A DNA stretch of 64,000 bases. It comes from Candidatus Poribacteria bacterium. Lineage in GTDB: Bacteria; Poribacteria; WGA-4E; JAJDTR01. The position numbers and the translations under genes were made by a program. Location: positions 871,058 through 935,057 of the forward strand of contig OZ246960.1 in the NCBI GenBank assembly GCA_965232235.1. Direction: 5' to 3'. This document shows positions 5,850-63,985 of this stretch, in pieces (position 1 is the stretch's first letter; each line of letters opens with the position of its first letter). The notes under the pieces were generated by a model that worked only from the letters and a program-made list of their open reading frames with translations, ran no database searches and was not told the DNA's origin.

Positions 5850-5883
5850 AGCGAATGGATAATGAGTGCGATAGAGATCCCTT
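5850..5883 (-). repeat. copy of the R1 short repeat family (ctatcgcNctcattatccattcgcttgatc)
   Basis: Reverse complement matches the family consensus. Confidence 0.6.
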
Positions 5884-6129
5884 TCCAACCGCACCGGCAC
5901 CTACGGAAACCAGCGCCATGAGTCATCTCTTGTGGCGCACCCATCAGTGAACGAACTGGTATTCCCTCGCTCACGTCTACATGGAGATTAACAGTTCAAG
6001 ACATTGAAGCCGCGTGACTTGCACCCTAAAACGCTTAACTTGATCCCTATGGGGCTAAATTGCGATACAACCTATCCTGACGCTGAGCAACGTCAGACTA
6101 TCCGACGCATTCTTAATCGAATTGTGGTC

Positions 6130-6412
6130 CAAGATCGAACAGAAATGGTGCCCTACCAGCTTTGTTGAACGCGGGCACTGTTGGGAGAACTGCCAACGCC
6201 CCTCTTGTACAGAAATTGGACAACGATGTTCATATTTTAGGTACGAAAGCACGAAACGCCATTGCGTCTTAATGACACATCGGAGCACAATACCGATGAA
6301 ATTCGTGGGTTAGTGCCCGAATCGGGGCAACTTATGGGCGTGGCACACCACTTGCTCACGCTCTACTTGCGCAGTCAATCCGATAGCCATCAGTTCTAAG
6401 GGAGGCAATCCA
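6130..6412 (+). repeat. duplicated leader segment, copy B
   Basis: Shares the last ~280 bp of copy A, including the sigma-54 site and ribosome-binding-site region. Confidence 0.7.
6341..6355 (+). promoter_or_regulatory. sigma-54 promoter match TGGCAC-accac-TTGC, 58 bp upstream of ATG 6413
   Basis: Same position as in copy A. Confidence 0.55.
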
Positions 6413-7509
6413 ATGATATGGGCTCAAATTTTCACGCAAACCGCTTTCATTTTCTTAGTAATGATGACTATCCTAGCGAACGAATCGGATGCGAATATCC
6501 GCACACTTTGGCTTTCACTCACTGGCACGGAGGATATGGGAGAGATAAACACACTTGAATCCGATGGAAGCCGACTCTACGCCGGGACACGGGACGGACT
6601 CTACATCTCGGACGATAACGGTTACACCTGGCGTTTAACCGAGTTTAAACTGCCTGTTAAGGTAATGGCAACCAGCCCGCAATCAATATACGTAGGATCG
6701 AATGTTTATGACGGCCTCATTCAATCCGATGATCGTGGAAAGACATGGGAGCCCCTAAACAACGGGCTTGGATATATCGATGAAACCAACCGTTTAGACG
6801 ACGGTCCCGTTGGGTACGGAGTGTTTAAATACTTTGTGCACACCCCTTACGGCACCATAATCAGTGTAATGGCCTGCTGCACTGATGACTCGGCCGACGG
6901 CAGCGACACCTGGCGTGAGGCGCCATCCGACTGGCGAGTCGACGATACCGACTGGATATTAGGCTACGCTGTAAAGTTGTTGTACGGCATGGATCACTAT
7001 CTGGTGGCCGGCTGGGTTAGCGGTATACTACGCTCCCGTGAGGGACAACCCGGCGGCCGCCTCATCTCTTCCTTCGGTGGGAACGTCGACCAGATCGCTT
7101 GGCCGACCGCCTGGGCCGTGCTCAATAATAGAGTGTATGTAACCTGAGCACCATACTTGTCAAACGCCCCGTTTTTCGCGCTATACGACCCGGAGCGCAC
7201 TTGGCAGTATCTCAACGTAGGGCTTCCGGAGAGCGACGGTGTATGGCTCCGATACAATATAAACACCTTCGCTGCTAACCGCGGCCGCCTCTTCGCCGGA
7301 CTTAACCGCCCCGCGGCGTATACATGTTTGATGAGCGCTCCAAAACGTGGATTCCGGCAGGCCTAGACGGGTTGACCGTTAGTTCGCTCAAATCCCATCA
7401 AACCGATCTGTACGCAGCAACCAATGAAGGAATCTACCGCGCTTCAATCCCGACCGTGCAGCCCTACGGCAAAGCCGCCATCATCTGGGGCACCATCAAA
7501 CAAAAATGA
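6413..7509 (+). pseudogene. BNR/Asp-box paralog 3, disrupted by at least two frameshifts
   Basis: Homology to the intact paralogs continues across three frames (6413..7147, 7157..7366, 7324..7509); ends with the tail PYGKAAIIWGTIKQK. Confidence 0.6.
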
Positions 7510-8576
7510 AATACACAACCCTCATCGTCACTCTATTAGCCCTGCTCCTCGTCATCTCCCTCGCCCGCGCCGAGTGGGAACTCCTTCTTGCCACGCATAA
7601 CATGAGCGGCGTGACGGCACTTGAAACCGACGGCAGCCGCCTCTTCGCCGGGGGATCGTTGGAAGGACTGTATACCTCGGACGATAATGGTGACACCTGG
7701 TGTACAACCGCCCTGACGCACGGATACGTTCAGGCAATTGCTATCAGCGGCGATGCGGTATATGCATTCGTGAATGAGCACGGCATGTTTCGCTCCGACG
7801 ATTACGGGAAGACGTGGAACCCGATAAACGACGGGCTCCGCACAATTCATGACCATACCCTCGACATCCGGATCCCGTACATTAACCAAATACTCGTTAC
7901 CCGTTCCGATATGGTCATCGCTGCGGGCGGCTTTGATGGGACGTACATATCCCGCGACCGAGGAGAGACATGGCACTTCGCGGCCGATTGGTCGTTTCCC
8001 TGCCCCAAAGGGCCCGAGGTGCCCGACTTTACATTCAGCGATTCCATCGATTCGATGATCGAATACGACGGTTATTTGTGGGCAGCCGCGTGGTTCCACG
8101 TATACCGTTCCCCCGACGACGGCTCCACATGGGAATGCGTGCCAGTATTGCCAAGGCTCGGCGAAGCCTACGACTGGGCAGTGCTCAACAATCAATTATA
8201 CGTCGCCGGAGGACACGGATTTGTACGATGGAACGAAGGCGAACTCGCTTGGGACGATCTCAACAACGGGCTGCCGGATTCCCCTGATTTGAGAAGCCTT
8301 GCCGTTAACCGCGGCCGCATCTTTGCCGCAGTTAGGGCGTCATCTATGATCAGACCAGGGGCTTATAGGACTGTCGCACACGGCGTGTACGAGTTCGATG
8401 AGCAATCCGAAACCTGGTTTCCCGCAGGCCTAGAGGGAGTGGCGGTATACTTGGTCGCATCCGATCAATCCTACCTCTATGCCTCGACGTACAAGGGCAT
8501 TTACCGCGCTTCAATCCCCGTCGTGCAACCCTACGGCAAAGCCGCCGCCACGTGGGGCGCCATCAAACGACCATGA
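7506..8576 (+). CDS. secreted BNR/Asp-box beta-propeller protein, paralog 4 (356 aa)
   Basis: Signal peptide; SDDNGDTW, SDDYGKTW, SRDRGETW, SPDDGSTW; tail PYGKAAATWGAIKRP; ATGA overlap with the upstream gene. Confidence 0.75.
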   Translation: MKYTTLIVTLLALLLVISLARAEWELLLATHNMSGVTALETDGSRLFAGGSLEGLYTSDDNGDTWCTTALTHGYVQAIAISGDAVYAFVNEHGMFRSDDYGKTWNPINDGLRTIHDHTLDIRIPYINQILVTRSDMVIAAGGFDGTYISRDRGETWHFAADWSFPCPKGPEVPDFTFSDSIDSMIEYDGYLWAAAWFHVYRSPDDGSTWECVPVLPRLGEAYDWAVLNNQLYVAGGHGFVRWNEGELAWDDLNNGLPDSPDLRSLAVNRGRIFAAVRASSMIRPGAYRTVAHGVYEFDEQSETWFPAGLEGVAVYLVASDQSYLYASTYKGIYRASIPVVQPYGKAAATWGAIKRP

Positions 8577-8584
8577 AAATGTAT

Positions 8585-8618
8585 CTGGTGCTTCCTCTCG
8601 ATTGAAAGGAAGCACCAG
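8585..8618. terminator. bidirectional hairpin terminator between convergent genes
   Basis: Perfect 12-bp stem ctggtgcttcct / aggaagcaccag with a 10-nt loop; a U-run follows on the minus-strand side. Confidence 0.45.
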
Positions 8619-8629
8619 ATGAGACTCCC

Positions 8630-9145
8630 TTAAGCAACGGTTATCTCGTGAGTGTTTCCAGACGAACCCGGATTAGGTGCCGGCTTGGGCGGGCTGCCTT
8701 GCGTTTGCGCATTTTGGAAACCCACGCTAGTGTAGGCCTCGATCTTCACCTTGTCGCCCGGTTCGAGAGGATCATCCAACTCGAACGTATAGACACGATC
8801 ATTCTCCCAAGAGGAATTGCCTTTGAGGTCTTCCATGTCGTCTTCGTCAAACGTGTCGCCCGAGTCGACCCTTATCACGCCCTCGTTACGATTTTGTCGG
8901 GGTGGCGCCGTCTGATCGGAAAACACATCGGGAGGATAGCCTCCGCCTCTATCGATGTTAACCTCATGCTTATACTCGATATCGAAAGTCTGGCGGCCGT
9001 CGTCCTTGTTTTCGATATCAAATCGGTGTTTGCTCCGGGTTGTGATCTCATCCCTGGCGGCGTTCACCGATACATTAATGTCAAAGCACTCCAAAGACGC
9101 CGTGGTTTGGTGGCTGTTGTATTGCTTGAGTGGACCGCGTACCAT
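8630..9145 (-). CDS. hypothetical protein (171 aa)
   Basis: ORF track; no motif recognised. Confidence 0.3.
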   Translation of the reverse strand: MVRGPLKQYNSHQTTASLECFDINVSVNAARDEITTRSKHRFDIENKDDGRQTFDIEYKHEVNIDRGGGYPPDVFSDQTAPPRQNRNEGVIRVDSGDTFDEDDMEDLKGNSSWENDRVYTFELDDPLEPGDKVKIEAYTSVGFQNAQTQGSPPKPAPNPGSSGNTHEITVA

Positions 9146-9204
9146 AGTTAAATCTCCTTAATTTCACCCTCCTACGAGTGTCACCGCTTATACTGAGGTA
9201 TAAA

Positions 9205-9732
9205 ATGAAAAGACTAAGCCTGCTCATATTGCTCATCGCCGCCTGCGGCGCCGAAGACACGATGCGCGAGCCCGACATTGAGCCAGTCCTTCCGGTCGTC
9301 GACATCGGGGCCTACGACATCAACTCCCAGTATTTCGTATATCAACTCGAGTCTGATCACACGGTAGACCGACCCATATACGTCTGGGTAGTTAAGACCT
9401 ATAGAGGGCATTATTCGAACGACAGGTTTCGCCGCTTTGAAATCTGCGACGTCGGCGGGCCTGCAAGGATAATAGCGGGTCTGCAAGAGTGCATCGGAAT
9501 TGCGGAAAGAACGATTGGCACCAGGAAAGAAACGGATCATCAATTCTCTAAGTCCAATGTCCCCTTTCAAGAGGGCGAGCAGGGTATTGTCACCTCTGTC
9601 GTCATAGAAATTTCGCAGTTGCCGCCGCAGGCCGAATGGTATATAGAGAGAGGCCACCCATTCACCGTAGGCGTCTCCACCCTGATGTTCACGACGCATC
9701 AAAACATTATTCGTCGACAATGGCAAACGTGA
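9205..9732 (+). CDS. hypothetical lipoprotein
   Basis: MKRLSLLILLIAAC lipobox from the internal Met at 9205. Confidence 0.4.
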   Translation: MKRLSLLILLIAACGAEDTMREPDIEPVLPVVDIGAYDINSQYFVYQLESDHTVDRPIYVWVVKTYRGHYSNDRFRRFEICDVGGPARIIAGLQECIGIAERTIGTRKETDHQFSKSNVPFQEGEQGIVTSVVIEISQLPPQAEWYIERGHPFTVGVSTLMFTTHQNIIRRQWQT

Positions 9733-9809
9733 AGGCATAAAAAAGGCCGCTGTCGCCTGGGGAGCTATAAAACAACCACGACTAAAGTAGACATAGAACA
9801 AGGTGTATC

Positions 9810-9908
9810 ATGAAAATCTATCTGCTCGTACTGCTCGTGCTCCTCGGCTGCCGGGAGACGGAGAATCGACCTGTTGTCGAACAGCCCGAAGCGTTCTCCG
9901 GACGGTAG
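9810..9908 (+). pseudogene. remnant lipoprotein signal peptide (32 aa, MKIYLLVLLVLLGC...FSGR*) inside leader copy C
   Basis: Translation by eye; ends with the same ..FSGR stop context as 1231..1608. Confidence 0.4.
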
Positions 9909-10324
9909 AATCGCAGCGTCCGCTTGTTAATCACCGTTTCCCTCACGAGTTGGCGTTTCATAGACACATCCTTGAAATTGTTAAGACAGAGGCACTGTTG
10001 CGAGAACTGCCAATGCCCCTATTGCACAAAAAATGAACATTGGCGTTCACTTGTTAGATACGAATGCACGAACCGCTAAGACACAGCAGGAGGTGAGTTC
10101 GATGCAATTCGTGGGGTAGTGCTAATACAGGGTAACTTATGGACTAGGACAGTCCTGGGACGTGATAGATAGTGGCGCACAACTTGCATACATTCCAATA
10201 ACGCAATCAATTCGAGAACCATCAACTCTACAAGAGACGGCAAATTTTGTGCACTCAACTCGGATCGACTTTCACGAAGTGCTGCCGCTATGAGAACTAA
10301 CACTGCCGAAAAGGTGAAAACCCT
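9880..10324 (+). repeat. duplicated leader segment, copy C
   Basis: First ~200 bp nearly identical to copy A. Confidence 0.7.
10173..10187 (+). promoter_or_regulatory. sigma-54-like promoter match TGGCGC-acaac-TTGC
   Basis: GG-N10-GC spacing retained; 138 bp upstream of ATG 10325. Confidence 0.4.
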
Positions 10325-10972
10325 ATGAACGACTCCAACTTGTTCGGACGAATCGTTAAGGCGGCGGTGGTCGTCGCCCTATACGCATTCTTTTTCATCG
10401 GTGCTGTCGTCCTGATAATCGGCTGCGGCGAGGAACGTGAGGATATCCTGCAGCCGGCCTTGCCAACGATTAATCTGAGAGCACAAGACATCGATCCGAG
10501 CTTTCGTCAGTTTGCATATGCCATCACCGCCAGCGAGCCGCTCCCCTATTCTATAACACTGCGCGTAGACACCACTGCCGACGTATTCGCAAACGGGCAC
10601 TTCCAAATTGTGAGAAATAAGGAAATCCTCACTTTCAAGCGTGGTTCACAGACGGTCTACGGATTCTACAACAGATATTTCCTGCAAGCGTTCCTGTATC
10701 AAAACAGCTTTTTTTTCGATAAGGAGTTCGGGACGCTGGAATGCGTTCGCGGCGGCGGCGCCGGTTCCGTCCCAGACCCCCCGCGTGGGGCTCACCCCGT
10801 GATTCAGATAAAGGTAATGATCTCACATCCACTGCCCAACGACGACCATTGCGTCAGCCTTGCCGGCGGTGCCTACACTATTGAGAGTTCGAAACTCACT
10901 TTAAGGGCGCCTGACGATCTCATCGAGACGCTGTTTCCTGACCCGGACACCCGCCCATGGGAAGTCCGATAA
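10325..10972 (+). CDS. hypothetical membrane-anchored/lipoprotein (215 aa)
   Basis: N-terminal TM helix ending in IIGCG. Confidence 0.4.
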   Translation: MNDSNLFGRIVKAAVVVALYAFFFIGAVVLIIGCGEEREDILQPALPTINLRAQDIDPSFRQFAYAITASEPLPYSITLRVDTTADVFANGHFQIVRNKEILTFKRGSQTVYGFYNRYFLQAFLYQNSFFFDKEFGTLECVRGGGAGSVPDPPRGAHPVIQIKVMISHPLPNDDHCVSLAGGAYTIESSKLTLRAPDDLIETLFPDPDTRPWEVR

Positions 10973-11013
10973 TACCCCTTATCGGACTTCCTTAAACCCG
11001 AGGTAAAGCACCA

Positions 11014-11230
11014 TGAAATATACCTGCTGCTACTCGTTACCCTCTTCGCCTGCAGCGAAACCGATAATACACTTATGCCGGTAGCATGGTTCCATACGGG
11101 GAAGGAGTCTGGACCTGGTCTGGTAGACCCGACTGGCCCGATTACGACACCTAGATATTCGAGTCTTTCTGTCTGGTGTCGGATATCCCCATGCCGGCCA
11201 CAACCTACATTTTGGTAGAAGACCGTTTCG
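11014..11230 (+). pseudogene. frameshifted lipoprotein remnant
   Basis: The +1 frame after codon 4 reads LLLLVTLFACSETDNT.., a lipobox. Confidence 0.35.
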
Positions 11231-11419
11231 TCCACATGGCCGAAGGCGAGCTCCGATCCCAGGAAGTCGTTTTCTGGAGTATATGTCCGCCCCGGACCAC
11301 TAACGACTCGCCCCCTAGGTTCGAGGCGCAAATAAAGCCGATGCACGAACGATCCCGACACTTGCCGTCTAACCCTTGAAGTTAGATACTGTACAGCAAT
11401 TACTATCCATCAGAACACC

Positions 11420-12223
11420 GTGTATGCCGGAACATGGTACGACGGCGTATTTCGCTCCGACAGTCATGGCAACACATGGCAACCCATAAACAACGGAATC
11501 CGCTTAATCGATCGGGGTAGCGAAGAACTCGGGCCTCCAATCATTGAGCAAATACTCGTGACGAGTTCCGGAACCGTCATCGCTGTGGGGTACCACAGCG
11601 GTACGCATACATCGACCGACCGAGGCAAGACATGGCACGACGTAACACTAGAGTGGAAAGTGCGCCGAGACGCATGGGGACTGCCCGACCGGATAATAGG
11701 CGATGGTATCTGGTCGATGGCGGAGTTCGACGGCTATCTTTGGGCAGCCTATTCGAGATACCAAGTATTCCATTCCCGTGACAACGGCGTAACGTGGGAA
11801 CATACCAGCGGATTCGGGCATGGCCGGGTTGCCGACTGGGCGGTGCTTAATGATCGATTATACGTGGCCGGGGACGAAGGCTTTGGGCGATGGAACGAAG
11901 CCGAACTCGCGTGGGACGATCTCAGCCGAGGGCTTCCGCCAGCTGGCAGGTGGCCCGACCGTCCAGACCTCTCAATACAAACCCTGGTTGTTCATCGCGG
12001 ACGTATCTTCGCCGGGCTTCGGAACAACGGCGTGTGGACGTTTGATGAGCGCTCCGAAACGTGGATTCCCGCTGGTCTCGACGGGTTGACCGTTACCTCG
12101 CTCGTATCCCATCGATCCGATCTGTACGCAGCAACCAAAGAGGGCATCTACCGCGCTTCAATCCCGACCGTGCAACCCTCCGGTAAAGCCCTCACGACAT
12201 GGGGCACCGTTAAAACAAAATGA
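11420..12223 (+). CDS. BNR/Asp-box paralog 5, 5'-truncated
   Basis: Homology to paralog 1 starts about 11390 (..TAITIHQNTVYAGTWYDG..), equivalent to residue ~90 of the full-length proteins; no signal peptide; Asp-boxes and the tail PSGKALTTWGTVKTK are present. Confidence 0.55.
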   Translation: MYAGTWYDGVFRSDSHGNTWQPINNGIRLIDRGSEELGPPIIEQILVTSSGTVIAVGYHSGTHTSTDRGKTWHDVTLEWKVRRDAWGLPDRIIGDGIWSMAEFDGYLWAAYSRYQVFHSRDNGVTWEHTSGFGHGRVADWAVLNDRLYVAGDEGFGRWNEAELAWDDLSRGLPPAGRWPDRPDLSIQTLVVHRGRIFAGLRNNGVWTFDERSETWIPAGLDGLTVTSLVSHRSDLYAATKEGIYRASIPTVQPSGKALTTWGTVKTK

Positions 12224-12235
12224 CGGAGACCGCTC

Positions 12236-13309
12236 ATGAATAACAAACTCAGCTTAACGTTTATCCTAACCCCACTCCTGCTCGCGATCTGGCTCTCCAA
12301 TTTCGTCCAAGATGCCCGCGCGGAGTGGGAACATATCCCCGGCACCGAGGTCATCGGGAGCGTCGAACTGCTTGAAAGCGACGGTGTCCGTCTTTACGCC
12401 ATAGGTGACGCCGGCTTTTACCTCTCCTTCGATGACGGTTACACCTGGCGTCGCCGCAACATTGGTCGCGGCATCGAGGACTTTTATATCACCGCCATTG
12501 GAAGCGGGGATGGTGCCGTCTATGTCGGTACGGCAGACCACGGCGTGATCCGCTCCGACGACGGCGGCAACACCTGGGAGCACATTAACGAAGGGCTCCA
12601 CATCTTCGACAGCCCGAAATGGGGGGCCCACTACGGAAAGGTTGAACAAATGCTTGTCACAGGTTCCGGCATGGTCATCAACGTAGGATACCACCGTGGC
12701 ACGCACATATCTAACAACCGAGGCGAGAAATGGCGCGACGTAATGATGGAATGGAAGGCATCCCAAGGACCGGGACAGCACGATTGGGCTTTCGGCGACG
12801 GCATCTGGTCGATGACCGAGTTCGACGGCTATCTCTGGGCCGTCTATTCGGACGCCCCGGTATTCCGGTCCCCCGACCAGGGCGCCACTTGGGAGCTTCT
12901 TCCAATCCGAAGCTACGGCAGCATCCGCGACTTTGGGCGCGTACACGACTGGGCGGAGCTTGGGGATAAGCTGTACATCGCCGGAATCGGCGGCTTCGGG
13001 CGATGGAACGAAGCCGAACTTGCTTGGGACGATTTCAGCCAAGGACTCCCGCCGGAACGGATAGCAAGCCTAGCGGTTAATCGCGGCCGTATCTTCGCCG
13101 GAACAAGGAACAACGGCGTGTGGGTGTTTGATGGCCGATCCGAAAGGTGGATTCCCACAGGTCTGGACGGGTTGACCGTTACTTCGCTCGAACCCCATCA
13201 ATCCGATCTGTACGCGGCAACCAAAGAGGGCATCTACCGTGCTTCAATCTCGACCGTGCAACCCTACGGCAAAGCTGCCGCCACATGGGGCGCCATAAAA
13301 CAACGATGA
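12236..13309 (+). CDS. secreted BNR/Asp-box beta-propeller protein, paralog 6 (357 aa)
   Basis: Signal peptide; SFDDGYTW, SDDGGNTW, SPDQGATW; tail KAAATWGAIKQR. Confidence 0.75.
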   Translation: MNNKLSLTFILTPLLLAIWLSNFVQDARAEWEHIPGTEVIGSVELLESDGVRLYAIGDAGFYLSFDDGYTWRRRNIGRGIEDFYITAIGSGDGAVYVGTADHGVIRSDDGGNTWEHINEGLHIFDSPKWGAHYGKVEQMLVTGSGMVINVGYHRGTHISNNRGEKWRDVMMEWKASQGPGQHDWAFGDGIWSMTEFDGYLWAVYSDAPVFRSPDQGATWELLPIRSYGSIRDFGRVHDWAELGDKLYIAGIGGFGRWNEAELAWDDFSQGLPPERIASLAVNRGRIFAGTRNNGVWVFDGRSERWIPTGLDGLTVTSLEPHQSDLYAATKEGIYRASISTVQPYGKAAATWGAIKQR

Positions 13310-55347: not shown

Positions 55348-55704
55348 TTAATTGTCCCGTAATCTGGGCGCGGTGAAACGGAACAGCAGGATTAATGCGA
55401 TCACGATGGTTAGCACCAGGAGCACTCGATTATTGGTTTCTCTGTCTCTTTTCTCGCGGTGCTCACGCACGTCTATCTGTGTCCTGAGGTTGGCATTTTC
55501 GACTTCTGCTTCGGAAAGTACGAGTTTGAGTTTCGCGTTCTCTTCCCTCAAACCCTTGATTGTCTCGCCCTGATCGACGGTACTAATCGTGTCCTCGGAA
55601 CCCACATCGGCTCTTACGACCGTCCTTGAAGCGCCAAAATGGGGTGGCACACAGATCGCACATAGGAGTATTATGCACCGGAAAAGGGTTTTCGGGTCGA
55701 GCAT
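55348..55704 (-). CDS. small coiled-coil protein with an N-terminal signal and a C-terminal TM helix
   Basis: ORF track. Confidence 0.3.
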   Translation of the reverse strand: MLDPKTLFRCIILLCAICVPPHFGASRTVVRADVGSEDTISTVDQGETIKGLREENAKLKLVLSEAEVENANLRTQIDVREHREKRDRETNNRVLLVLTIVIALILLFRFTAPRLRDN

Positions 55705-56057
55705 GTTTGGCTCCGTGTGCGTCGGGTTGGGGCGCGTGACGGAGGAAGGGCGCCCTCAGTGATGTTAAACATAGCACGGCTGCCGCGGTTTGTCAACGGG
55801 AGGAGGCAGGATTGGACAGACTTGTCGCGTGGTGCGGCGGTCGGGCGGCGCAACCGAGATCGGTGATGACGGAGAAAACGGGAGGGATGGGAGTGGAAAC
55901 CATGGAGTCTGTCAGGAGATGCATTCGGATAGAGTGTTGTTCATGGGTGTAATGAGAAACATCTTGACGCGAGGGACTGCCTCCCGTAGTATGAAGGATA
56001 GGTGACACCGCGAACGGAGACGGACCGACCAAGATTTTGAAGTGTCTATAAGGTACA

Positions 56058-57023
56058 ATGACGAAGATGATTAAAAGGGACCTACAATATTACGTGGAGA
56101 AGATGAAGCGCTTGAAGATTGACAGGGCGCACGGTCCGGCGCCGCATAAGCCGGCGCTGCTGCTGTCGGTCATCGCGCTGATTGAGGATGGGCTAGTTAC
56201 AGAGAATCGAATTGAGTTGTCCCCCGAAATGGCGGAGATCTTCATCCGATATTGGTCGAGGGTCACTAATCGAAAGCCTGATATTTCGTTGCCATTTTTC
56301 CACCTGCAGAGTGATGAGTTCTGGCATCTGCACCCAAACACGGGTTACGAAACGGCTCTGCGTGTTGCCAACCAGATTAAAGGGATTTCTCGGATTCGCG
56401 AGGTTGTTGCATACGCTGGTTTGGACGATGAGTTATTTCTGTTACTCACTGACGCGGTCGATAGAGAGACGATTCGTCGAACACTAATACGTACGTATTT
56501 CCAGGAATATATTAAACAGATTGGGGAGTTGATTGAGGAGGAGCAGCAGATCGGAGCGTACAGAGAATCGTTAATTGACGAAGTTGAATCGCCGTTTTCA
56601 ACGACGAAACCAAAAAGGCAAACTGGGGCTTACACCAAGGTACGCGATGCCGGGTTTCGGCAAGCGATCATGCGACTATACGATTACACTTGTGCGGTTT
56701 GCGAGTTGCGTATCGTCACTATGGATGGCGAGAGTGCAAGTGAAGCGGCTCATATCATCCCGTTTCGTGTTTCGCAGAATGACGATACACGGAACGGAGT
56801 CTCATTGTGCAAATTGCACCATTGGGCGTTCGACAGAGGACTGTTTTCGTTGAGCGAGAACCATCGGGTGGTTGTTTCCGGGTTGATGTCGGAGGATCGT
56901 CCAACGGAGTGGAAGTTGACGGAACTTGAAGACACACGTATTCAGTTACCGGATAGGGTTCAATTTCGCCCTGCACAGGAAGCAATGGCGTGGCACCGGG
57001 AAAATGTGCTCAAGCAGAATTGA
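56058..57023 (+). CDS. HNH_2-type endonuclease with an N-terminal DNA-recognition-like domain; candidate modification-dependent (type IV) restriction enzyme
   Basis: CAVCEL..EAAHIIPF..NGVSLCKLHHWAFDRGLFSL HNH motif at the C-terminus; N-terminal HKPALLLSVIALIEDG block. Confidence 0.5.
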   Translation: MTKMIKRDLQYYVEKMKRLKIDRAHGPAPHKPALLLSVIALIEDGLVTENRIELSPEMAEIFIRYWSRVTNRKPDISLPFFHLQSDEFWHLHPNTGYETALRVANQIKGISRIREVVAYAGLDDELFLLLTDAVDRETIRRTLIRTYFQEYIKQIGELIEEEQQIGAYRESLIDEVESPFSTTKPKRQTGAYTKVRDAGFRQAIMRLYDYTCAVCELRIVTMDGESASEAAHIIPFRVSQNDDTRNGVSLCKLHHWAFDRGLFSLSENHRVVVSGLMSEDRPTEWKLTELEDTRIQLPDRVQFRPAQEAMAWHRENVLKQN

Positions 57024-57239
57024 GTAATCGGTGTGATCGGAGAGATTTGTGTCGCGCGGGTTTGGGGGCAGAACAGAATGAGCGCCGGAACCTAGGATCC
57101 CTATCGCCCTCCCTATCCGGTCGGTTAATCTCACGCTGGAGCGGGGAATCGCGACCGGGAGGTCGCTCCCACAAAGGCTGGTGCGCGGTGCGCACCCTAC
57201 ATATAGATTTGTTCCCACCCCACAACTACTCCCGTGACG

Positions 57240-58031
57240 TCACTTGCGCTGATCCGGAGGGGTGGGTTTACGCTTTGGAGGTGTGGGTTGGTTCATTTTT
57301 CTTAATTCGGCCCATGCATTGCTTGAGATCCACTTATCGGGGTGCTTTTCCAGCCGTTGAAGCCCCTTCTTCCTCTGGTCAAGATCGGGGATGGACATGA
57401 CTTCGCAGAATGCTTCCAAGACCGGGAGTTTTTTCTGGTAGTATTCCCGGGACAATTGCCAGGTGGCTTGCTCGTTGCGAATGGAAGCTTCGAAGTAATG
57501 CTCTTCCGTCATGTCGAGTTTGGTTCGAATTTCGGATTCGCGGGCGTGCATGCTCCAATTCTCATCCAAGATCACGGCATTGTCGGGAACGAATTCGGGG
57601 AATTTTGAGATCTTCAGGAAGTAGACCAGGTCCTCCGTCTCTGAAAACATAGGACCTTCCGTGTGACCTGAGATATCGCACTGATACGCGAGAAGGGTCG
57701 CCGGGCTGCGTTCAGGTTGCGGCTTTAGTTTCTTGTTGATTTCTTTCAGGTCGCGTTCGGAAAAGAGGGCTTGTACGATCTTTTCTTTCGCGTAGAGTAC
57801 CCGGTTGATTCGGATTGTATGCAAGGAACCGTCGTCTGATGTATCGATGATGGGTGACTTCCAATTGACAATGACGAACTGGGTGCTGGTGACCCTTCCG
57901 AAGAACACGATATCGGATTTCTCGACGAGTTCGTGAATATGAATCACCGACGAGATGGCGTGAGCCAGAATGGTTGGAATGACGGATAGCGCTAGAACGG
58001 CGATGCCTGATAACCAAGAATGGCGTTTCAT
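57240..58031 (-). CDS. secreted hypothetical protein (263 aa)
   Basis: Signal peptide MKRHSWLSGIAVLALSVIPTILAHA. Confidence 0.35.
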   Translation of the reverse strand: MKRHSWLSGIAVLALSVIPTILAHAISSVIHIHELVEKSDIVFFGRVTSTQFVIVNWKSPIIDTSDDGSLHTIRINRVLYAKEKIVQALFSERDLKEINKKLKPQPERSPATLLAYQCDISGHTEGPMFSETEDLVYFLKISKFPEFVPDNAVILDENWSMHARESEIRTKLDMTEEHYFEASIRNEQATWQLSREYYQKKLPVLEAFCEVMSIPDLDQRKKGLQRLEKHPDKWISSNAWAELRKMNQPTPPKRKPTPPDQRK

Positions 58032-58129
58032 TTTTGCCTCCGACGGCGGTTGGTCGATGGTGTTGTCCGTGACGATGCTGGGAATGCAGGGGTTCGTTGG
58101 GGGACATTATCGCACATGAGCTGCCGATT

Positions 58130-58720
58130 TTGCAAACCGTATGGGATCAAGCGAATGAAAAATGAGTGCGATTGGGATTCTAAGGCGATGGAAATTTCTA
58201 ATGGCTATTCGCAGATTGTAGAGGGTGGAGTTCTGTTGCGGGGATAGGGCGGGCGTGGGAGATCTATGTCGTCGTACGGATGAGATCACAATCTAACAGA
58301 TTGTGGTACTGGGATCGGGCGCGGGAACCGCGCCCCTACGACGCATCGGGTTTGTTGAGGGATTTGCTATTGCGCACACATCTTTATCGGCGTAGAGAGA
58401 GATCACAATCTAACAGATTGTGGTACATGGCTTTTGTGCTTGATCACATGCGGCTAATCGGGGCAAGGGAATCTCTATCGCGGTCGCTATCCACTCCCTT
58501 GATTCCCTCCTACAACCGGGCGGAGGGAGATTTCTGTTGCGGGGATGGGGCGCGGAGACCGCGCCCCTACGAACCCGACTGGGCAGGGGATTTCTATCGC
58601 GCGAAGATCTCTATCGGGATGGACTATCGCGTTCCCTATTCGGTCACTTGATCCCTCACTATCCGTTCGGTTGATCTTATCCAGTCGGTTGATTCCCGCC
58701 TACAGATTTATTCAGAAGGG
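58130..58720. repeat. dense cluster of R1-family repeats, GTAG-REP hairpins and a duplicated palindrome atcacaatctaacagattgtggtac (58283, 58400)
   Basis: Seen directly. Confidence 0.65.
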
Positions 58721-58721
58721 C

Positions 58722-59285
58722 TTACGATCTGGCGGCAAAACTTGCGTCAAGCGTGCCGCCGGGAGAGAAAATATCCCCCAAGCCGACCGGTGTCTCTTTC
58801 GTCTGATCGCCGCCGCCTGAATCGCCCTCGACATGCAATTCCATATCTTTCGCGGCTTGCTGGCTCTCCTTTTCAGCCGCCGTCTGATACATCTTACCGA
58901 AGATGTCGGACACGCCGATCACGTCTCCGCGCAAAAACGCATACGCCGCCTCCCAGAGTTGCGGCTCCGAGGCGTCGGGGTGTTTCATGCGGATTTCCTT
59001 CTCCGTCTCAAGAATCTTCATCTTCAAATCCTGCCGATACTGATTCTCAAGGATAAGCCGCTGTTCCTCGGTAATCTCGTCGCCGTTCTGCTGCGGCAGG
59101 CCGCCCAGACTCTCGATGATAGTCGCAATCTTCTGATCCATCGACAACGCTGCGGACGGTTCGGGCAATCCCTCGATCTGGATGCCTTGTTTCCCCAAGG
59201 TATCAATAACTTCGTCGAGGGTCATGGTGCGCTTGGTGTCGGTGTCTTGCTGCTGGTTTTGTTCTGTTGGTTGAGTTGGTGCCAT
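58722..59285 (-). CDS. acidic hypothetical protein (187 aa)
   Basis: ORF track. Confidence 0.3.
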   Translation of the reverse strand: MAPTQPTEQNQQQDTDTKRTMTLDEVIDTLGKQGIQIEGLPEPSAALSMDQKIATIIESLGGLPQQNGDEITEEQRLILENQYRQDLKMKILETEKEIRMKHPDASEPQLWEAAYAFLRGDVIGVSDIFGKMYQTAAEKESQQAAKDMELHVEGDSGGGDQTKETPVGLGDIFSPGGTLDASFAARS

Positions 59286-59319
59286 GATATGTCCTCCTGG
59301 TGCGGATGAGTTTGGTTTG

Positions 59320-59960
59320 CGTAACGGGCGAGGGAAGATCTCTATCGCCTTCCTTGTTCAGTCAGTTGATCCTCGCCCCTACAGGTCAAATGGCTCGACA
59401 GAGCATAGTCGCGATTCGGAGATCGCTCCTACAACCGTATAGCTCACATTGCACTCCGCTGGAGTGCGGAGATTTGACGTATGGTGTTTCTATTGACATT
59501 GCACTGCGCTGCAGTGCGATGGAAGGTGTGGGACTTACTATCGCGCTCGTTATTCACTCGCTTGATCCCACCCTACAACTGCTAAATCGCGACCTGGAAA
59601 TCGCTCCTACAAATGGAGAGAAATCTCTATAGCGCCCGATGCCTCACATTGCGCTCCGCTGGAGCGCATAGGCGAATATGGCGATTTTCTATTGACATGC
59701 CGCTCCGCTGGAGCGGGGAATCGCGACCGGGAGGGGGATTTCTATCGTCCTCGTTATCCACTCGCTTGATCGTTCCTACAGGTCAAATCATGCCGGTGTC
59801 CATGCCCGACGCGACATTTTGGTTAAGGGGATTTCCTATCGTCCTCCCTATCCGGTCGGTTGATGGATTCCCGCGGGATTTACTATTAGGATTTGCTACC
59901 GCACTCACTATCCGTTCGCTTGATCCCTCGCTATTCGGTCGGTTGATCTCCGTTGGTTGA
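59320..59960. repeat. dense cluster of R1 repeats plus two ttctattgacat+hairpin modules and GTAG-REPs
   Basis: Seen directly. Confidence 0.65.
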
Positions 59961-61504
59961 ACCGGTTGCGAAAACGTGTCATCATCCCAACCGTAGCCGG
60001 TGTCGAATCCCACAAACTTGATTAACTCGCTAATTGACATGTGCGCGCCCAGCGCCGCCATGATCTGCGCGATCTCCAGCTTGCCAGCCGGCGTGTTCGG
60101 CAGTGAGGTCGCGTCGGGCATCTTCATGCGGTATCCGATATACCGCGCCTCCTCCCTGAGCGAATCAGGGAAATCAATACCCCGCCGCCAAATATGAGCC
60201 GCAAGCGGACGGCGGGCAAACTGTTGTGTCAACGAAATCAGCAACCGCATCCGATGAAGCCGGAATTCGTTCATCTCGCGGACGTTGTTGCTTATCTGGT
60301 TAAACGCCGCCCACTGCAGCGTGTTCACCATTCTGCCGCTGGCGTTGGAGGACGGGGCTTGCCCGGCGAACACCGGATTCAGAGACGGCATCATGTCCGC
60401 AATCCCTTGAATCGAGTGTTGCAAGAGATTGTACAGAATCGGCGGCACCGCTTCCGTTGGAAACGGTTTGATATCTCTATCAAGGTCGTACTCCTCCTCG
60501 ACCTCGATGTTGACGCCGTATCCCGTAAACACCTGCTCCATATCCAGCGCGCCGCGCTTCGATATCATGCGGCCTATCGACAATCGACGCAGCATCAGGA
60601 TAAGGTTGGAGTAAACCTCGTCGAGAAACTTCTGCTGCGACCAGCACAGTGCTCCGTAACCGTGTCCCCAAAACGATCGCGATTGATTACTGCTGTGTTT
60701 GATGACGGGGAAATTCCGCCACGTCGCAAACGGGAAATCGGGGTAATAGTACGGCGTTGTCCGAATCCGCACGACGTCGTTGTCGATTGCCGTCGCATAG
60801 AAAACCTCCGTGTCGCCCGCGTCCTTCACCTGTATGCCCTGCATCTCGGCAATCCATCGCCGCATCCACAGTTCCCGAATCCTGAACTGTCGCTGCTCAT
60901 TATCCAGATTTGAGCCGGTTTTTGAATCGGAAATCTGGTAGTCGGGATAGTGGTAGCGGATATAGCGCTCGTTCTGTGTCGTCTCGTGCACCAGGAATCC
61001 CGCATTCGACAAATCCGTGCTCGTTGCGTCCGGATCGACGGAGAACGCCAGCGGCGAAATCGGTACCATCCGCACCACGCGATAGCGCGGGTCATACACC
61101 GCTTTCGAGATGGCGTGTCCGAAGATCAGGTTGTGGTAAACCGCATCTTCAAGGCGCTCACCCTCCTTGTCCACCTCCTGAAACATCTGGGTCCACTGTT
61201 TCAAATCCTCGATATTCTCGGCATCCTCAATGCTGTGGCGGCTCCTGTCCGGCAGCAGTTCTATCCGTGCCGCCTGCTCCGTGAACGCCGGCACCAGACG
61301 CAGGATTCCCTTCTGAATCTCGGGATTCAGGCTCTCATGCGTTATCGGAGACACATTCCCAATAGACGTGCCATCGACGTACGCACTGCGATTATTGTAA
61401 ATCGCGAGCTCATGACGCATCCGGCTGTGGTGTTCCTGCGCCGCACCCTGCGCCTCGTCCATGAGGCTGAAAAATTTTTCGGCTGATTTTTTGTTTATCA
61501 TCAC
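59783..61504 (-). CDS. putative phage portal protein; the C-terminal ~55 codons are repeat-derived
   Basis: Size and position in the module; the last part of the ORF reads through the R1 repeats (..ERIVSAVANPNSKSRGNP..). Confidence 0.35.
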   Translation of the reverse strand: MMINKKSAEKFFSLMDEAQGAAQEHHSRMRHELAIYNNRSAYVDGTSIGNVSPITHESLNPEIQKGILRLVPAFTEQAARIELLPDRSRHSIEDAENIEDLKQWTQMFQEVDKEGERLEDAVYHNLIFGHAISKAVYDPRYRVVRMVPISPLAFSVDPDATSTDLSNAGFLVHETTQNERYIRYHYPDYQISDSKTGSNLDNEQRQFRIRELWMRRWIAEMQGIQVKDAGDTEVFYATAIDNDVVRIRTTPYYYPDFPFATWRNFPVIKHSSNQSRSFWGHGYGALCWSQQKFLDEVYSNLILMLRRLSIGRMISKRGALDMEQVFTGYGVNIEVEEEYDLDRDIKPFPTEAVPPILYNLLQHSIQGIADMMPSLNPVFAGQAPSSNASGRMVNTLQWAAFNQISNNVREMNEFRLHRMRLLISLTQQFARRPLAAHIWRRGIDFPDSLREEARYIGYRMKMPDATSLPNTPAGKLEIAQIMAALGAHMSISELIKFVGFDTGYGWDDDTFSQPVQPTEINRPNSEGSSERIVSAVANPNSKSRGNPSTDRIGRTIGNPLNQNVASGMDTGMI

Positions 61505-62178
61505 AGTCCCATATAATTAAAGCCGATTGGTTGTTTTTCATAGCGTCGGGTGAACGGATTCAGAAATCGCGCGTTTGGGCTATTTCTCCATACATCGGGA
61601 TCAGCGATATATCCTTCGCCTGGCAGCGAATCAAGTATCGCTTGCGCGTCCGAACCGCCAAACAGTGTGTCCACGGCGCCATTAGTCGTTTCGTCGTCGG
61701 GGTTTTGACCTATTTTTTTCAGGTACGCAAGGTTCTTGATAATCGAGGCGAGATCCTCCATGAACGACGAATCACCCGACAGATTCTTGAGCCGATCGTT
61801 CACTGTCTTAGACAGACCGGACAACGATGCGCCGTACTGCGAGCTTGCCGCTTGCATCGCCGCGTTAATCGGCGCCTGCTGCGCCTGCTGCAGCAGCGCC
61901 AGACCCGCGGGGCTGGACGGCCCCAACCGAGCAGCGATATTACCGGACGCCGCCTGCATCTGAGGCCCCGCGTTCTGGCGTATCATCGCCAGTTCCGCTT
62001 CGGTAAACTTCCCGCGGCTGCGGCGTTGAAGATCTCTGTTGAACTGCACTTGCTGATTCAACACCTCTTGTTGCAGCCTGTAGAGATCTCGGTTCGCGAT
62101 TCGGTCATAAATTCCGAGTCCGAGATTCGCCAACGCGCTTCCGCCCGCTATGAGCGCCATTGTCGTGGGTTCTGCCAT
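61501..62178 (-). CDS. hypothetical phage-module protein (225 aa)
   Basis: 4-nt overlap with the portal start. Confidence 0.3.
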   Translation of the reverse strand: MAEPTTMALIAGGSALANLGLGIYDRIANRDLYRLQQEVLNQQVQFNRDLQRRSRGKFTEAELAMIRQNAGPQMQAASGNIAARLGPSSPAGLALLQQAQQAPINAAMQAASSQYGASLSGLSKTVNDRLKNLSGDSSFMEDLASIIKNLAYLKKIGQNPDDETTNGAVDTLFGGSDAQAILDSLPGEGYIADPDVWRNSPNARFLNPFTRRYEKQPIGFNYMGL

Positions 62179-62179
62179 T

Positions 62180-62371
62180 TTAAATCACCTTTTCCGTGGA
62201 CACTTTAAACCATCCGTCAATCAGAAATTTGTACAATTCGCCATCCATCACAACTTCATCGCCGAACTGTGCACTTCCGGGCAGTTCTCGAACTTCTCGC
62301 ACCCTGTCCTGCTTTTCGTCGTCCACATGTCTCGTTAACGCATCCAAGGATTGCTGTTCTTTCAGTGGCAT
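62180..62371 (-). CDS. small hypothetical protein (63 aa)
   Basis: Tight coupling to the neighbours. Confidence 0.25.
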   Translation of the reverse strand: MPLKEQQSLDALTRHVDDEKQDRVREVRELPGSAQFGDEVVMDGELYKFLIDGWFKVSTEKVI

Positions 62372-62512
62372 TGCCGCCTCATTGATTATGAAAAACGCGA
62401 TGAGTTGACCGAATAGGAAATCAGGTTTCCTTTGGGAGTTCTATCGGGATTTTCTATCGCGGTCACTATTCGTTCCCTTGATCCCAGTTGATTGATAGAA
62501 AGACTACCGGCG

Positions 62513-63985
62513 TTACACGTACGCTCGAACCTTCAACCCTCTAATTGTCGCGCCGCCCGTTCCGGCAATCTTGAACCGCATCGCAAATCCCCGACGGTCT
62601 ATCCGAACCCGCACATAATCGAATCTTTCCCCGCCCATCCTATTCGCCGTGATAGTTTTCTCGACCGGCTCTTGATCATCGATGTAAAATGCGGCGGTTA
62701 CGTCTTTCTCCGCGTTCCCGTCAATCACCAGTTCCTTGAAGGTTTTCATCTCGCTTCCAAGCCCCTGCGAGTTCCAATCAAGCTGCTGCGATTCCCAAGC
62801 CCAATCAATTTCCTCCGTGGGAGCGCCCTCTTGCCCCGTGTACTTCGTTAAGCCGTCAACCGTTTCGTCATCGACCACCCAATCGAGCAGGCGCGGTGAG
62901 CGCTGCCCGTCGGCGATCACGCCCGTCAGCGGCTGTTCGTCAAACTTCACCGAAGCGTATTGACGGATGTGCGCCCCGTCAGGGACTTCTATCGCACGGG
63001 ATTTACTATCAGGTTTTACTATGGGATTAGCTATCGCAGTCGCTATCCGCTCCTTTGATCCTTCGTTATCAAGATCTCTATCGCACTCGTTATTCACTCG
63101 CTTGATCTCAGTTGATCCTTGCGCGAAGCGCACCCAATCGTTGCCATCATTAACAAAATAGATGATATCGGTATTGCCGGTCGACTTATGGCGGCGGCGA
63201 ATCCCCCACAGGCTCGCATTGTTCGGCAGCATACCCACAAACCCGTCGTCCACCTCGTACCGATTGAAATATCCTTTCAACTGGGGCACAGACTCCGGCG
63301 CAGCCGTTCCGTCCGTCAGGTAGAGCCCGTCACTCCCCACAAAGCCGAAGGCTTTTTCGAGCACACTCCACGCATGGGGTGATGCCGGACCGCGTGCCGA
63401 AATTCGGTCGTATCGAAACGTCTGTGGTGATGTGCCGCTGAGCCGGTGAAGATTATCGGCCGCGCCGAACAGCAGCATCCCTCGATATTCGGCGCAGAAC
63501 TCAATGCGCTGACCGGTGGTGATGGCATTTATGACAGGCCAAGCATGCCACCGCGGTGTCAAATTGCGCACGTCACTAAATCGGAGTTCGTTTCCGTTTG
63601 CGCCAAACAGCCGGTCGTTAAATCTTTCTATCTGTGAAATACTCGGAGGCATTCGGCTGCTGTCCGTTAGCGGGTTCGACACATCGATTACGATTTCCCC
63701 ATCTTCAAGTTCATAATTGTCGTCGTCAAATTCAACGTCTTCATCGCCGATTTCAACCTCGCCGACGCGATAGTATGTAATGTTCGCGTCGTTTTCAAAT
63801 AGGTCGAAAGCGCCGCCGCTCCGGTATATGCGAACTGCTGTTACGCGGCTATCGTCGGAATGCGGTATATTGCGCAACGTTGCCAGCGGAACGTCTTGGA
63901 CCGGCGTTTGGCGGTAATTGATTGCGCGCCGTTCTGAAGCGGGTGATTCGATGGATCCTACGCGGCTGAACGCTACATAGGTCAA
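62513..63985 (-). CDS. phage-module structural-size protein (490 aa) with an in-frame repeat-derived segment
   Basis: The reading frame stays open across the R1 repeat cluster 62985..63110 (..SKERIATAIANPIVKPDSKSRAIEVPD..). Confidence 0.35.
   Translation of the reverse strand: MTYVAFSRVGSIESPASERRAINYRQTPVQDVPLATLRNIPHSDDSRVTAVRIYRSGGAFDLFENDANITYYRVGEVEIGDEDVEFDDDNYELEDGEIVIDVSNPLTDSSRMPPSISQIERFNDRLFGANGNELRFSDVRNLTPRWHAWPVINAITTGQRIEFCAEYRGMLLFGAADNLHRLSGTSPQTFRYDRISARGPASPHAWSVLEKAFGFVGSDGLYLTDGTAAPESVPQLKGYFNRYEVDDGFVGMLPNNASLWGIRRRHKSTGNTDIIYFVNDGNDWVRFAQGSTEIKRVNNECDRDLDNEGSKERIATAIANPIVKPDSKSRAIEVPDGAHIRQYASVKFDEQPLTGVIADGQRSPRLLDWVVDDETVDGLTKYTGQEGAPTEEIDWAWESQQLDWNSQGLGSEMKTFKELVIDGNAEKDVTAAFYIDDQEPVEKTITANRMGGERFDYVRVRIDRRGFAMRFKIAGTGGATIRGLKVRAYV
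62985..63110. repeat. R1-family repeat cluster embedded in-frame in CDS 62513..63985
   Basis: Four tatcgc..ttgatc units. Confidence 0.6.

Follow-up and report, generated by a model that had tools for sequence, protein, structure and literature searches.

A 36-nucleotide (nt) repeat, here called R1, is scattered through a stretch of 64,000 nt from a Candidatus Poribacteria bacterium (GCA_965232235.1, contig OZ246960.1, positions 871,058-935,057, forward strand; hereafter the window). Our best explanation, held with moderate confidence, is that R1 is a non-autonomous, hairpin-dependent small mobile element, found only in Candidatus Poribacteria among the matches listed. Its copies fold into a covarying hairpin, nest within one another and within other palindromes, fill sites that also exist in empty form, vary in presence between relatives, and lie in frame within coding genes. 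The window itself is ordinary chromosome, with ABC transporter genes, a radical SAM enzyme, a glycosyltransferase and a block of BNR-propeller paralogs (Pfam). A phage-like module with a P22-type portal at ~57-64 kb is syntenic in several Poribacteria chromosomes.

The repeat family is real and far above chance. The 30-mer given by the original prediction, which was made from the letters of the window, had 10 matches at three or fewer mismatches against 0 in 100 dinucleotide-preserving shuffles, and a repeat-family search of the window returned R1 families of 16-21 copies. An nhmmer profile recovered R1, in both orientations, at every position listed in that prediction, together with a cluster at 26581-26642 that it had missed. 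With a covariance model (CM) run with filters off, 31 full copies scored E ≤ 3.5e-5 and a further copy reached 1.1e-4, the total being divided 25 to 7 between the strands, and about a dozen partial modules are present besides, giving a density of ~0.5 copies per kb. The unit had been taken to be 30 bp. It is instead 36 nt, GGATnnnCTATCGCnnTCnnTATyCnnTCnnTTGAT, because insertions and deletions (indels) of exactly 36 nt separate the window from its close relative L001 (L-numbers denote Poribacteria loci, and L001 is a contig from another sample). R1 is modular, with a head GGGATyTCTATCG and a 23-nt body, and its consensus is conserved over 13 species-level assemblies. Most copies contain two GATC sites, one at each hairpin foot (unit positions 2-5 and 33-36), and ATC motifs recur every ~12 nt; a tie of these sites to GATC methylation or to post-replication hemimethylation is conceivable.

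In agreement with the original prediction, the family is not CRISPR: the spacing is irregular, units occur in both orientations and are nested, copies differ in sequence, and no Cas family was found in a Pfam scan of 41 open reading frames (ORFs) of the window. That prediction had overlooked the covarying hairpin, the nesting within repetitive extragenic palindromic (REP) sequences and the fact that related genomes carry REP-associated transposases. When a degenerate R1 pattern was scanned against one genome per species, at least 116 stretches carried it, all of them, among the matches listed, in metagenome-assembled genomes (MAGs) of Candidatus Poribacteria, from 13 assemblies. The viral contigs of IMG/VR gave no match to the R1 structural pattern, and a literature search found no publication on Poribacteria repeats. 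For the comparisons below we used 363 distinct full copies from ~1 Mb of Poribacteria DNA of 13 species-level assemblies.

On its purine-rich strand R1 has the form of a 27-nt imperfect hairpin, 5'-ATC AA NN GA NN GrATA N'N' GA N'N' GC GAT-3', followed by the conserved tail AGnnATCC. From an invariant ATC/GAT helix the stem passes through an AA/GC loop, 2 base pairs (bp), a tandem GA/GA loop and 2 further bp to a GrATA cap, so that 7 bp are held in three short helices separated by purine-purine loops. The mismatched loops (AA/GC and tandem GA/GA) and the GrATA loop are invariant and the stem letters are free provided they pair, which is the pattern expected of a structure that is read by a protein. 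When mutual information was calculated over all pairs of R1 positions in the 363 copies, 18-26, 14-30 and 15-29 ranked as the top three and 19-25 ranked fifth. These four covarying pairs are nested and antiparallel, and are Watson-Crick in 75-91% of copies against 31-46% expected. The copies comprise 105 stem haplotypes, each found in several genomes, and pairing is kept in almost all of them.

As a guard against ascertainment bias, the hairpin was retested on the 150 copies that do not match the scan pattern. In this set 96.8% of cells were paired, and 265 cells carried a double change, compared with 41.7 in shuffles (0 of 500 reached the observed value) and at most 18 with slid partners. RNAalifold, unprompted, returned a structure identical to the one derived from covariation. 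Even in the window alone, 23 of 31 copies form all seven pairs, and every variable pair is represented there by 3-4 pair types. Among the cells that are not Watson-Crick, G.U on the purine-rich strand occurs 76 times and the reciprocal kind ~7 times; therefore it is the purine-rich strand of R1 that folds. Free-energy folding was also tried as evidence for the fold, with single units and with nested clusters, and was set aside for want of signal (z ~0).

R1 is overwhelmingly intergenic. Only 14 of 447 matches fall within open frames of at least 250 codons, where 57% of random positions would fall, and ~97% of copies lie between genes. Many of these intergenic copies sit inside other palindromes. 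Complementary flanking arms of at least 5 bp enclose 44 of the 363 copies, against 14.4 with shuffled partners, and the arms, which differ between copies, belong to GTAG-tagged perfect palindromes of the classical REP-like kind. At least 8 different arm families host R1, at the loop or at the foot. The palindrome REP-a (GGTGCGC-AGT-GCGCACC-CTAC) was found 35 times empty and 10 times filled with R1, and REP-b (GGTGGGC-AGT-GCCCACC-CTAC) 29 times empty and 4 times filled. In both, empty and filled forms share one junction, at which R1 follows the loop bases AG and replaces TG. Further host families include the perfect palindrome GTAGGGAATAACGATCGTTATTCCCTAC, and in one other family R1 lies between GTAGG and the stem. 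Flank pairing as a property of every R1 copy was rejected, as it holds for only ~12% of them (44/363) and a looser test gave 3.56 against 3.37; a model of GATC target duplication misfits the REP-a and REP-b junctions.

The relation of R1 to the REP tag is close for a minority of copies. GTAGG stands directly 5' of the hairpin in many copies, and the tag (CTAC on the R1 plus strand) lies within 18 nt of ~30% of them; 248 of 363 have neither GTAG nor CTAC within 18 nt. Where GTAG is present near R1, it is part of the host REP and its distance is variable. The folding strand of R1 coincides with the GTAG strand of the REP in 107 cases and opposes it in 10. The window contains at least 20 GTAG-tagged perfect-palindrome REPs of six or more stem families (GGTGCGC, GGTGGGC, GGTACGGC, GGGCGCGG, GGGACGGC, GGGCGGGG and GAGCGACC), which are hosts for R1 nesting; they lie at 22366-22386, 26474-26494, 27741-27766, 29166-29186, 31745-31765, 43318-43891, 46831-46856, 57180-57200 and 58317-58570. 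Two repeat mosaics in the window are tandemly duplicated, one at 43318-43924 (302 nt x 2, with REP-b, REP-a and others) and one at 29819-30245 (194 nt x 2.2, with R1 and small hairpins such as GCACTCCGCTGGAGTGC).

R1 also nests in itself. Units of 36 nt lie between CTATCG and the following C of a host copy, at an internal or apical loop of its hairpin, so that clusters read head1-head2-body2-body1; all three of the 36-nt indels against L001 are placed in this way within another copy. Among the 363 copies, 11 are strictly nested and 33 more have the host body directly 3', as opposed to 1 head-to-tail tandem; a shifted control gave 0 nested cases. In 7 of the 11 strictly nested cases the host reads CTATCA before the GGAT of the inner unit, where CTATCG is elsewhere invariant. 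Nested insertion thus seems to replace or mutate the junction base, and REP loops likewise lose one or two bases. The junctions yielded no single insertion rule for R1, as they either replace 1-2 target bases or show microhomology to its tail.

Two genes of the window, both in the phage-like module, contain R1 in frame. The first is the ORF at 62513-63985, which runs off the window and is represented in it by 490 amino acids (aa). Its homologs measure 509-810 aa in one count and 423-810 aa over all 36, and one of them is assigned by NCBI to a Candidatus Poribacteria MAG. The cluster placed at 62985-63110 by the original prediction, which expected it to be in frame, spans exactly 62987-63118, that is 132 nt or 44 codons between the DGNDWVR and HIRQY motifs. 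The segment is not a native domain: 9 of 18 aligned orthologs are without it, and the remainder carry repeat-derived peptides of unrelated lengths at the same hotspot. At the DNA level the site is empty in L118 and L119 and holds 33 nt in L001, 69 in L120 and 141 in L074, all multiples of three; the L074 array includes two identical 36-nt units in tandem, SSERIASAIENP x2. Orthologs are colinear on both sides of the insert, and the ORF is one gene rather than the two that had been raised as a possibility. The 490-aa protein has no Pfam match, and its AlphaFold2 model (pLDDT 46.6), of too low quality to be used, is least confident in the insert region.

The second gene encodes the P22-like portal. 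An in-frame repeat had been predicted here as the last ~55 codons of the gene; the repeat is indeed in frame, but it is an internal insert of 38 codons (114 nt, 59837-59950) between VQPT and the conserved tail GNPLNQNVASGMDTGMI, and the native C-terminal 17 codons are kept after it. Most of 25 orthologs are without this insert, one (P0041) has a single 12-codon unit, and L118 and L120 provide empty sites at the DNA level. A nested 36-nt unit at ~59889-59924 of the insert is absent from L001. Other Poribacteria genes with R1 peptides are found at L054 (INRVNSEGDRNSRAIEIP), L022 (IKRVDNERDRDL) and L006 (EWLASAVEKP). In every credible coding insert it is the purine-rich strand that is read, and both of its open frames are hydrophilic antisense frames of the type IKRVDNECDRD or SSERIASAIENP. 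Additionally, the last five codons (DQPSE) and the TAG stop of a 526-aa ORF at 48381-49961(-) are R1 sequence (48381-48400), and an R1 copy may have replaced the native C-terminus of that protein.

Comparison with close relatives demonstrates that R1 units come and go as units. The window from 51293 to 64000 is 97.3% identical to L001 over 12.7 kb, and 7 of the 9 indels of at least 8 nt are R1 modules. Two of these, of 57 and 42 nt, fall in the 490-aa ORF and one of 231 nt in the spacer that follows; three others measure exactly 36 nt, and the last is a 17-nt head module. Since the sequences of the inserted units are unlike those of neighbouring units, they are not fresh tandem duplicates. In the phage-like region L001 has 15 copies, whereas in the orthologous regions of three other species L118 and L120 have 1 each and L119 has 0, which implies lineage-specific proliferation of R1. 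A further difference from L001 is a 1461-nt segment of the window (53536-54996), absent there, which holds an 8xMP membrane-protein gene and two R1 copies and is bounded by a ~40-nt direct repeat (TTTTTGACGATTGAAAAACC..CCCCAACATGnTAAAATTA).

Two genes for REP-associated tyrosine transposases (RAYTs) were identified in a related chromosome, OZ244829, at L052:2654-3232 and L044:3845-4318; they score 180 and 126 bits, respectively, where the NCBIfam model NF047646 has its cutoff at 80. Some of the REPs that flank both genes carry nested R1, an adjacency that is biased in that the loci were chosen for containing R1. The two RAYTs are diverged (25% identical) and each is flanked by its own REP/REPIN arrays (REPIN, paired REPs forming a hairpin), with GTAGGAGGGAATTCCGATTCCCGAC ... 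GTCGCGATTCGGAGATCGCTCCTAC units around the one in L044, so there appear to be several REPtrons per Poribacteria genome. What RAYTs and IS200/IS605 transposases read in a folded single-stranded hairpin is its loops and mismatches, the conserved AA-GC mismatch of E. coli REPs is needed for cleavage, and the GTAG-tagged strand is the one on which RAYTs act (PMC8266576). The fixed AA/GC and GA/GA loops of R1, together with its free stem, would fit recognition of the RAYT type, as a resemblance only.

We also asked how R1 is oriented relative to transcription and replication. For copies between co-directional genes, the folding strand matches the transcript strand in 98 cases and the opposite strand in 92; therefore an mRNA-linked role of R1 is unlikely, and transcription-linked orientation was ruled out on these counts. 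Divergent, convergent and tandem intergenic regions all contain copies. Within 8-kb blocks, 190 of 302 pairs of separate clusters share one orientation, against 154.6 +/- 9.6 expected (11 of 2000 shuffles reached the observed value), and in one complete chromosome the R1 strand changes along the sequence in a manner compatible with replichores. The association of R1 strand with block GC skew was not significant (chi-square ~2.7).

We propose that a trans-acting enzyme would copy or move R1 in single-stranded form, a Y1/HUH transposase of the RAYT/IS200 type being the likeliest candidate. This enzyme would insert R1 where other folded hairpins are unpaired. The majority of copies are probably selfish or neutral, and copies within genes would survive only if the frame is kept and the hydrophilic antisense frames are read. 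A stronger version of the proposal is that R1 is actively mobile, the first "very small mobile element" like the small dispersed repeats (SDRs) outside cyanobacteria, with a dedicated Y1/HUH enzyme that reads the tandem-G.A hairpin and integrates into hairpin loops; this we offer tentatively and hold to be doubtful in its full form. If it were true, R1 in REPs would be a parasite of a parasite, and a 12-codon unit with hydrophilic frames would be a ready source of length variation in the surface loops of Poribacteria proteins, including those of phage-like particles.

Several observations weigh against mobility of R1. Free-energy folding of single units is no better than that of shuffles, and the fold rests on covariation, which could stem from a function at each site instead of selection for mobility. 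The junctions are not uniform and yielded no single cleavage rule: 1-2 target bases are often replaced, some junctions have microhomology to the tail of R1, and target-site duplication is absent from the 36-nt indels. Pfam scans of the window ORFs found no transposase or RAYT, and neither of the two RAYTs found in ~1 Mb of related DNA has R1 as its immediate cognate repeat, both being flanked by other REPs. Orthologous R1 copies are 2.1% diverged compared with 3.4% for other intergenic DNA, a comparison that is uninformative at n=8 differences. Deletion could explain some of the indels of this pairwise comparison in place of insertion. Finally, a replication-strand bias of R1 is only suggestive.

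Four other explanations must be considered. That R1 is a true REP subclass, or cargo of REP loops, and spreads only in REP/REPIN units by means of resident RAYTs would account for the tag within 18 nt of ~30% of copies with its 107:10 orientation, for the canonical REP layout of the many copies with GTAGG directly before the hairpin, for the R1-filled REPs that flank both RAYT genes and for an AA/GC mismatch that matches the E. coli REP determinant. We judge this unlikely, since 248 of 363 copies have no such tag nearby, the hosts belong to at least 8 arm families with R1 at varied positions and are more commonly empty, and R1 nests in R1 and enters coding genes without REP arms. Slightly less likely again is a role as RNA, in which a host RNA-binding protein or an RNase would bind or process the hairpin, perhaps to stabilise mRNA or to produce small RNAs; covariation would in that case stem from function at the individual loci. 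Tandem G.A loops are common as protein-binding motifs in RNA, G.U wobbles are tolerated on one strand only, and the folding strand is in the mRNA for all credible coding inserts. The last of these is equally explained by the hydrophilic frames, however, and orientation between co-directional genes is unbiased (92 vs 98), with copies in all three kinds of intergenic region alike. Rfam likewise gave 0 matches at gathering thresholds over the whole window and no match to R1 even at E ≤ 1 over 58000-63200, and the presence or absence of units between 97%-identical genomes speaks against an indispensable local role.

A selected host element at the level of DNA, comparable to bacterial interspersed mosaic elements (BIMEs) and serving, when extruded as a hairpin, as a nucleoid-protein, gyrase or replication site that spreads mainly by recombination, seems to us quite improbable. 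The consensus conserved across 13 assemblies, the ATC motifs at ~12-nt spacing with two GATC sites and the weak local co-orientation (190/302 vs 154.6) are consistent with it. A copy number that ranges from 0 to 15 between relatives in the same region argues against it, nested insertion and gene invasion are hard to square with a placed functional site, and covariation with free stem letters misfits a site recognised in double-stranded DNA. The most improbable of the four, by our estimate, is that the clusters arose only by minisatellite-like slippage or unequal recombination and that the coding segments are native low-complexity repeats. The tandem of identical units in L074 and the 17-nt head-module indels are what slippage would produce, but this explanation is already largely refuted by dispersal and nesting: within 64 kb R1 is spread over ~20 separate loci and both strands, only 1 head-to-tail tandem stands against 11-44 nested cases, inserted units are unlike their neighbours, and both genes have insert-free orthologs.

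R1 can be placed, as a new relative, with the smallest mobile DNA elements known, of which the closest are the SDRs of Nostocaceae and the REP/REPIN-RAYT systems, together with the Rickettsia palindromic elements (RPEs) for its behaviour in coding sequence. The repeats SDR1-8 of Nostoc and its relatives were reportedly described by Elhai et al. in 2008. Like R1, they are tens of nt long, dispersed and non-coding, form hairpins with compensatory changes, are confined to one coherent lineage, and insert both into one another and into a short palindrome (HIP1 for SDR5; REPs, including one centred on CGATCG, for R1). The likeness is one of description, and there are differences: R1 measures 36 nt as opposed to 21-27, belongs to a different phylum, is hosted by GTAG REPs instead of HIP1 or heptamer arrays, and enters genes in frame. 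SDR-like repeats have been reported only in Nostocaceae (PMC5861425).

With REP/REPIN-RAYT systems R1 shares small, mostly extragenic hairpins that are acted on as one strand and have conserved stem mismatches, and in Poribacteria genomes RAYT genes and many GTAG REPs coexist with it. R1 has the short imperfect palindrome of a REP (a 27-nt hairpin in a 36-nt unit, with four covarying pairs and the ATC/GAT helix) and is likewise extragenic and high-copy, but it has no GTAG or CGTC tag of its own and falls outside the REP definition there. Moreover, it is no simple palindrome, does not form the inverted pairs of REPINs and BIMEs, and sits inside REPs, not beside a RAYT as its cognate. The subterminal hairpins of IS200/IS605 elements are similarly imperfect, with unpaired bases, single-strand reading and no target duplication, although R1 has a single hairpin, no transposase gene between its ends and no identified fixed tetranucleotide target. 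The right boundary of R1, ~10 nt 3' of the hairpin foot, is presumably similar to the right end of IS608, which we regard as a lead and not a test.

In coding sequence the parallel with RPEs, which had been drawn at the outset, holds in two genes of the window and in more elsewhere. RPEs were reportedly described by Ogata et al. in 2000. As in their case, insertion is in frame, the gene stays open, a peptide is gained and orthologs exist without the segment; RPEs differ in being palindromes of ~100-150 bp, and R1 in being 36 nt long, 97% intergenic and nested in other repeats. RPEs are also mentioned in PMC1779305. The accompanying parallel with Correia elements is weak. Correia/NEMIS and other miniature inverted-repeat transposable elements are, like R1, abundant non-autonomous intergenic repeats that occasionally lie in ORFs, but they are 100-400 bp long with terminal inverted repeats and target-site duplication. 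R1, at only 36 nt, has no clear target duplication, and the nearest it comes to terminal inverted repeats is a weak complementarity of GGGATC and GATCCC, seen in some copies. The BOX element of Streptococcus pneumoniae has the modular form A-Bn-C, with modules of 45-59 nt in linear order. R1 resembles it in its modular build and variable number of internal modules, and differs in that its modules are nested (H H B B).

The copies in the window are collected in the table below. Those at 5843 and 14547 stand at the edges of a block of seven tandem paralogs (1929-14427) of a ~360-aa BNR/Sortilin-like beta-propeller protein, with DNA identity of 60-83% in blocks. The phage-like module at 57240-64000 carries SU10-adaptor-like, 233-aa, 5xx-aa, 63-aa, 225-aa, P22-like portal and 187-aa genes, and its synteny extends to large chromosomal contigs in several Poribacteria species (L001, L118, L119, L120); distant portal homologs lie on contigs of ~40-45 kb. 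The module may be a conserved prophage or a domesticated particle. Two features of the window lie apart from R1. At 50336-50643 an unrelated 108-nt x 2.8 tandem repeat with a 21-nt sub-period lies in frame in a coiled-coil-like ORF (50109-50651), and at 33595-34629, where there is no R1 copy, the Pfam match of a periplasmic-binding-protein ORF is split into two stretches, of which the better one begins only at residue 195.

R1 copies and R1-bearing genes in the window. For R1 the strand given is that of the purine-rich folding strand; CM, covariance model; TRF, Tandem Repeats Finder; H, head; B, body.
Feature	Position	Strand	Evidence and remarks
R1 full copy	5843-5883	+	CM 61.7 bits, E 5e-15; 7/7 pairs; between REP-like hairpin arms GGTGCGGTTGGAAA / CGCACCTACC
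R1 copy, degenerate	14547-14587	+	CM 28.1 bits, E 1.1e-5; 5/7 pairs
R1 full copy within REP-a hairpin (GGCTGGTGCGCAG ... ACACCCTAC)	17913-17953	+	CM 54.8 bits; flanks
R1 full copy	22734-22774	-	CM 48.2 bits
Three partial body modules, absent from original prediction	26581-26642	-	nhmmer 26581-26601, 26598-26616, 26619-26642
Degenerate R1 copy and extra body module	29318-29378	-	CM 31.6 bits; nhmmer
R1 full copy, 1st of three in 194-nt x 2.2 tandem mosaic	29818-29858	-	CM 55.4 bits; TRF 29819-30245
R1 full copy, 2nd in mosaic, flanks GTGGGA / TCCCAC	30012-30052	-	CM 56.3 bits
R1 full copy, 3rd in mosaic	30206-30246	-	CM 57.4 bits
Degenerate R1 copy and body fragments	31359-31426	-	CM 24.5 bits, E 1.1e-4; nhmmer
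R1 full copy within GCGGGGCAAG / TCCCGACTAC hairpin	31862-31902	+	CM 48.3 bits; flanks
R1 full copy, then CCTAC	35016-35056	-	CM 50.9 bits
R1 copy	38634-38674	-	CM 41 bits
R1 full copy	39084-39124	-	CM 54.3 bits
Nested cluster, H H B B: host head(s), complete inner unit 39197-39237, host body modules	39153-39281	-	CM 56.9 bits (inner unit)
Degenerate R1 copy and body module	43209-43271	-	CM 26.3 bits; nhmmer
R1 copy (48254-48294) and body module	48228-48294	+	CM 38.1 bits; nhmmer
R1 full copy at end of ORF 48381-49961(-)	48360-48400	-	CM 50.6 bits; translation
R1 copy and oppositely oriented body module	50013-50077	+	CM 38.4 bits; nhmmer
R1 copy, degenerate	54842-54882	-	CM 28.1 bits
R1 full copy	54909-54949	-	CM 47 bits
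R1 full copy; extra 17-nt head module here in L001	57092-57132	-	CM 50.4 bits; indel
R1 full copy	58143-58183	+	CM 46.1 bits
R1 full copy; further 36-nt unit nested between CTATCG and C in L001	58466-58506	-	CM 56.4 bits; indel
Nested cluster: head, inner unit 58615-58655, two more body modules	58585-58701	-	CM 49.4 bits; nhmmer
R1 full copy	59333-59373	-	CM 52.8 bits
R1 full copy, flanks GTGGGA / CCCACCCTAC	59529-59569	-	CM 55.4 bits
R1 full copy just 3' of portal stop codon	59733-59773	-	CM 53.7 bits
P22-like portal gene, insert host	59783-61504	-	Pfam PF16510, 29 bits; 52 homologs; alignment
In-frame R1-derived portal insert EINRPNSEGSSERIVSAVANPNSKSRGNPSTDRIGRTI; units 59827-59867, 59887-59927 and body module	59837-59950	-	CM; ortholog alignment
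R1 full copy nested in truncated host copy; 231 nt more R1/REP mosaic in L001	62445-62485	-	CM 57.7 bits; indel
Gene of unknown function, phage-like module	62513-63985	-	N-terminus beyond window end; 36 homologs, 423-810 aa; synteny L001, L118-L120
In-frame R1-derived insert of 490-aa ORF; units 63022-63062, 63069-63109 and head fragments	62987-63118	-	CM; protein alignment

The manner in which the smallest bacterial repeats, such as REPs and SDRs, spread is poorly understood, and SDR-like elements are known from one cyanobacterial family. R1 provides a second, independent small-repeat system whose rules of recognition and integration are testable in vitro, with signals that include fixed mismatches in a free stem, hundreds of copies per genome, empty and filled targets, unit-sized differences between relatives and candidate Y1 enzymes. 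In practice, mosaics of R1 and REPs likely cause assembly breaks in Poribacteria MAGs as well as errors in gene calling, in that ORFs are spurious, starts and stops are shifted and proteins come out too long. R1 also illustrates the remodelling of proteins by selfish DNA in a phylum without cultivated members, a parallel to the RPEs of Rickettsia.

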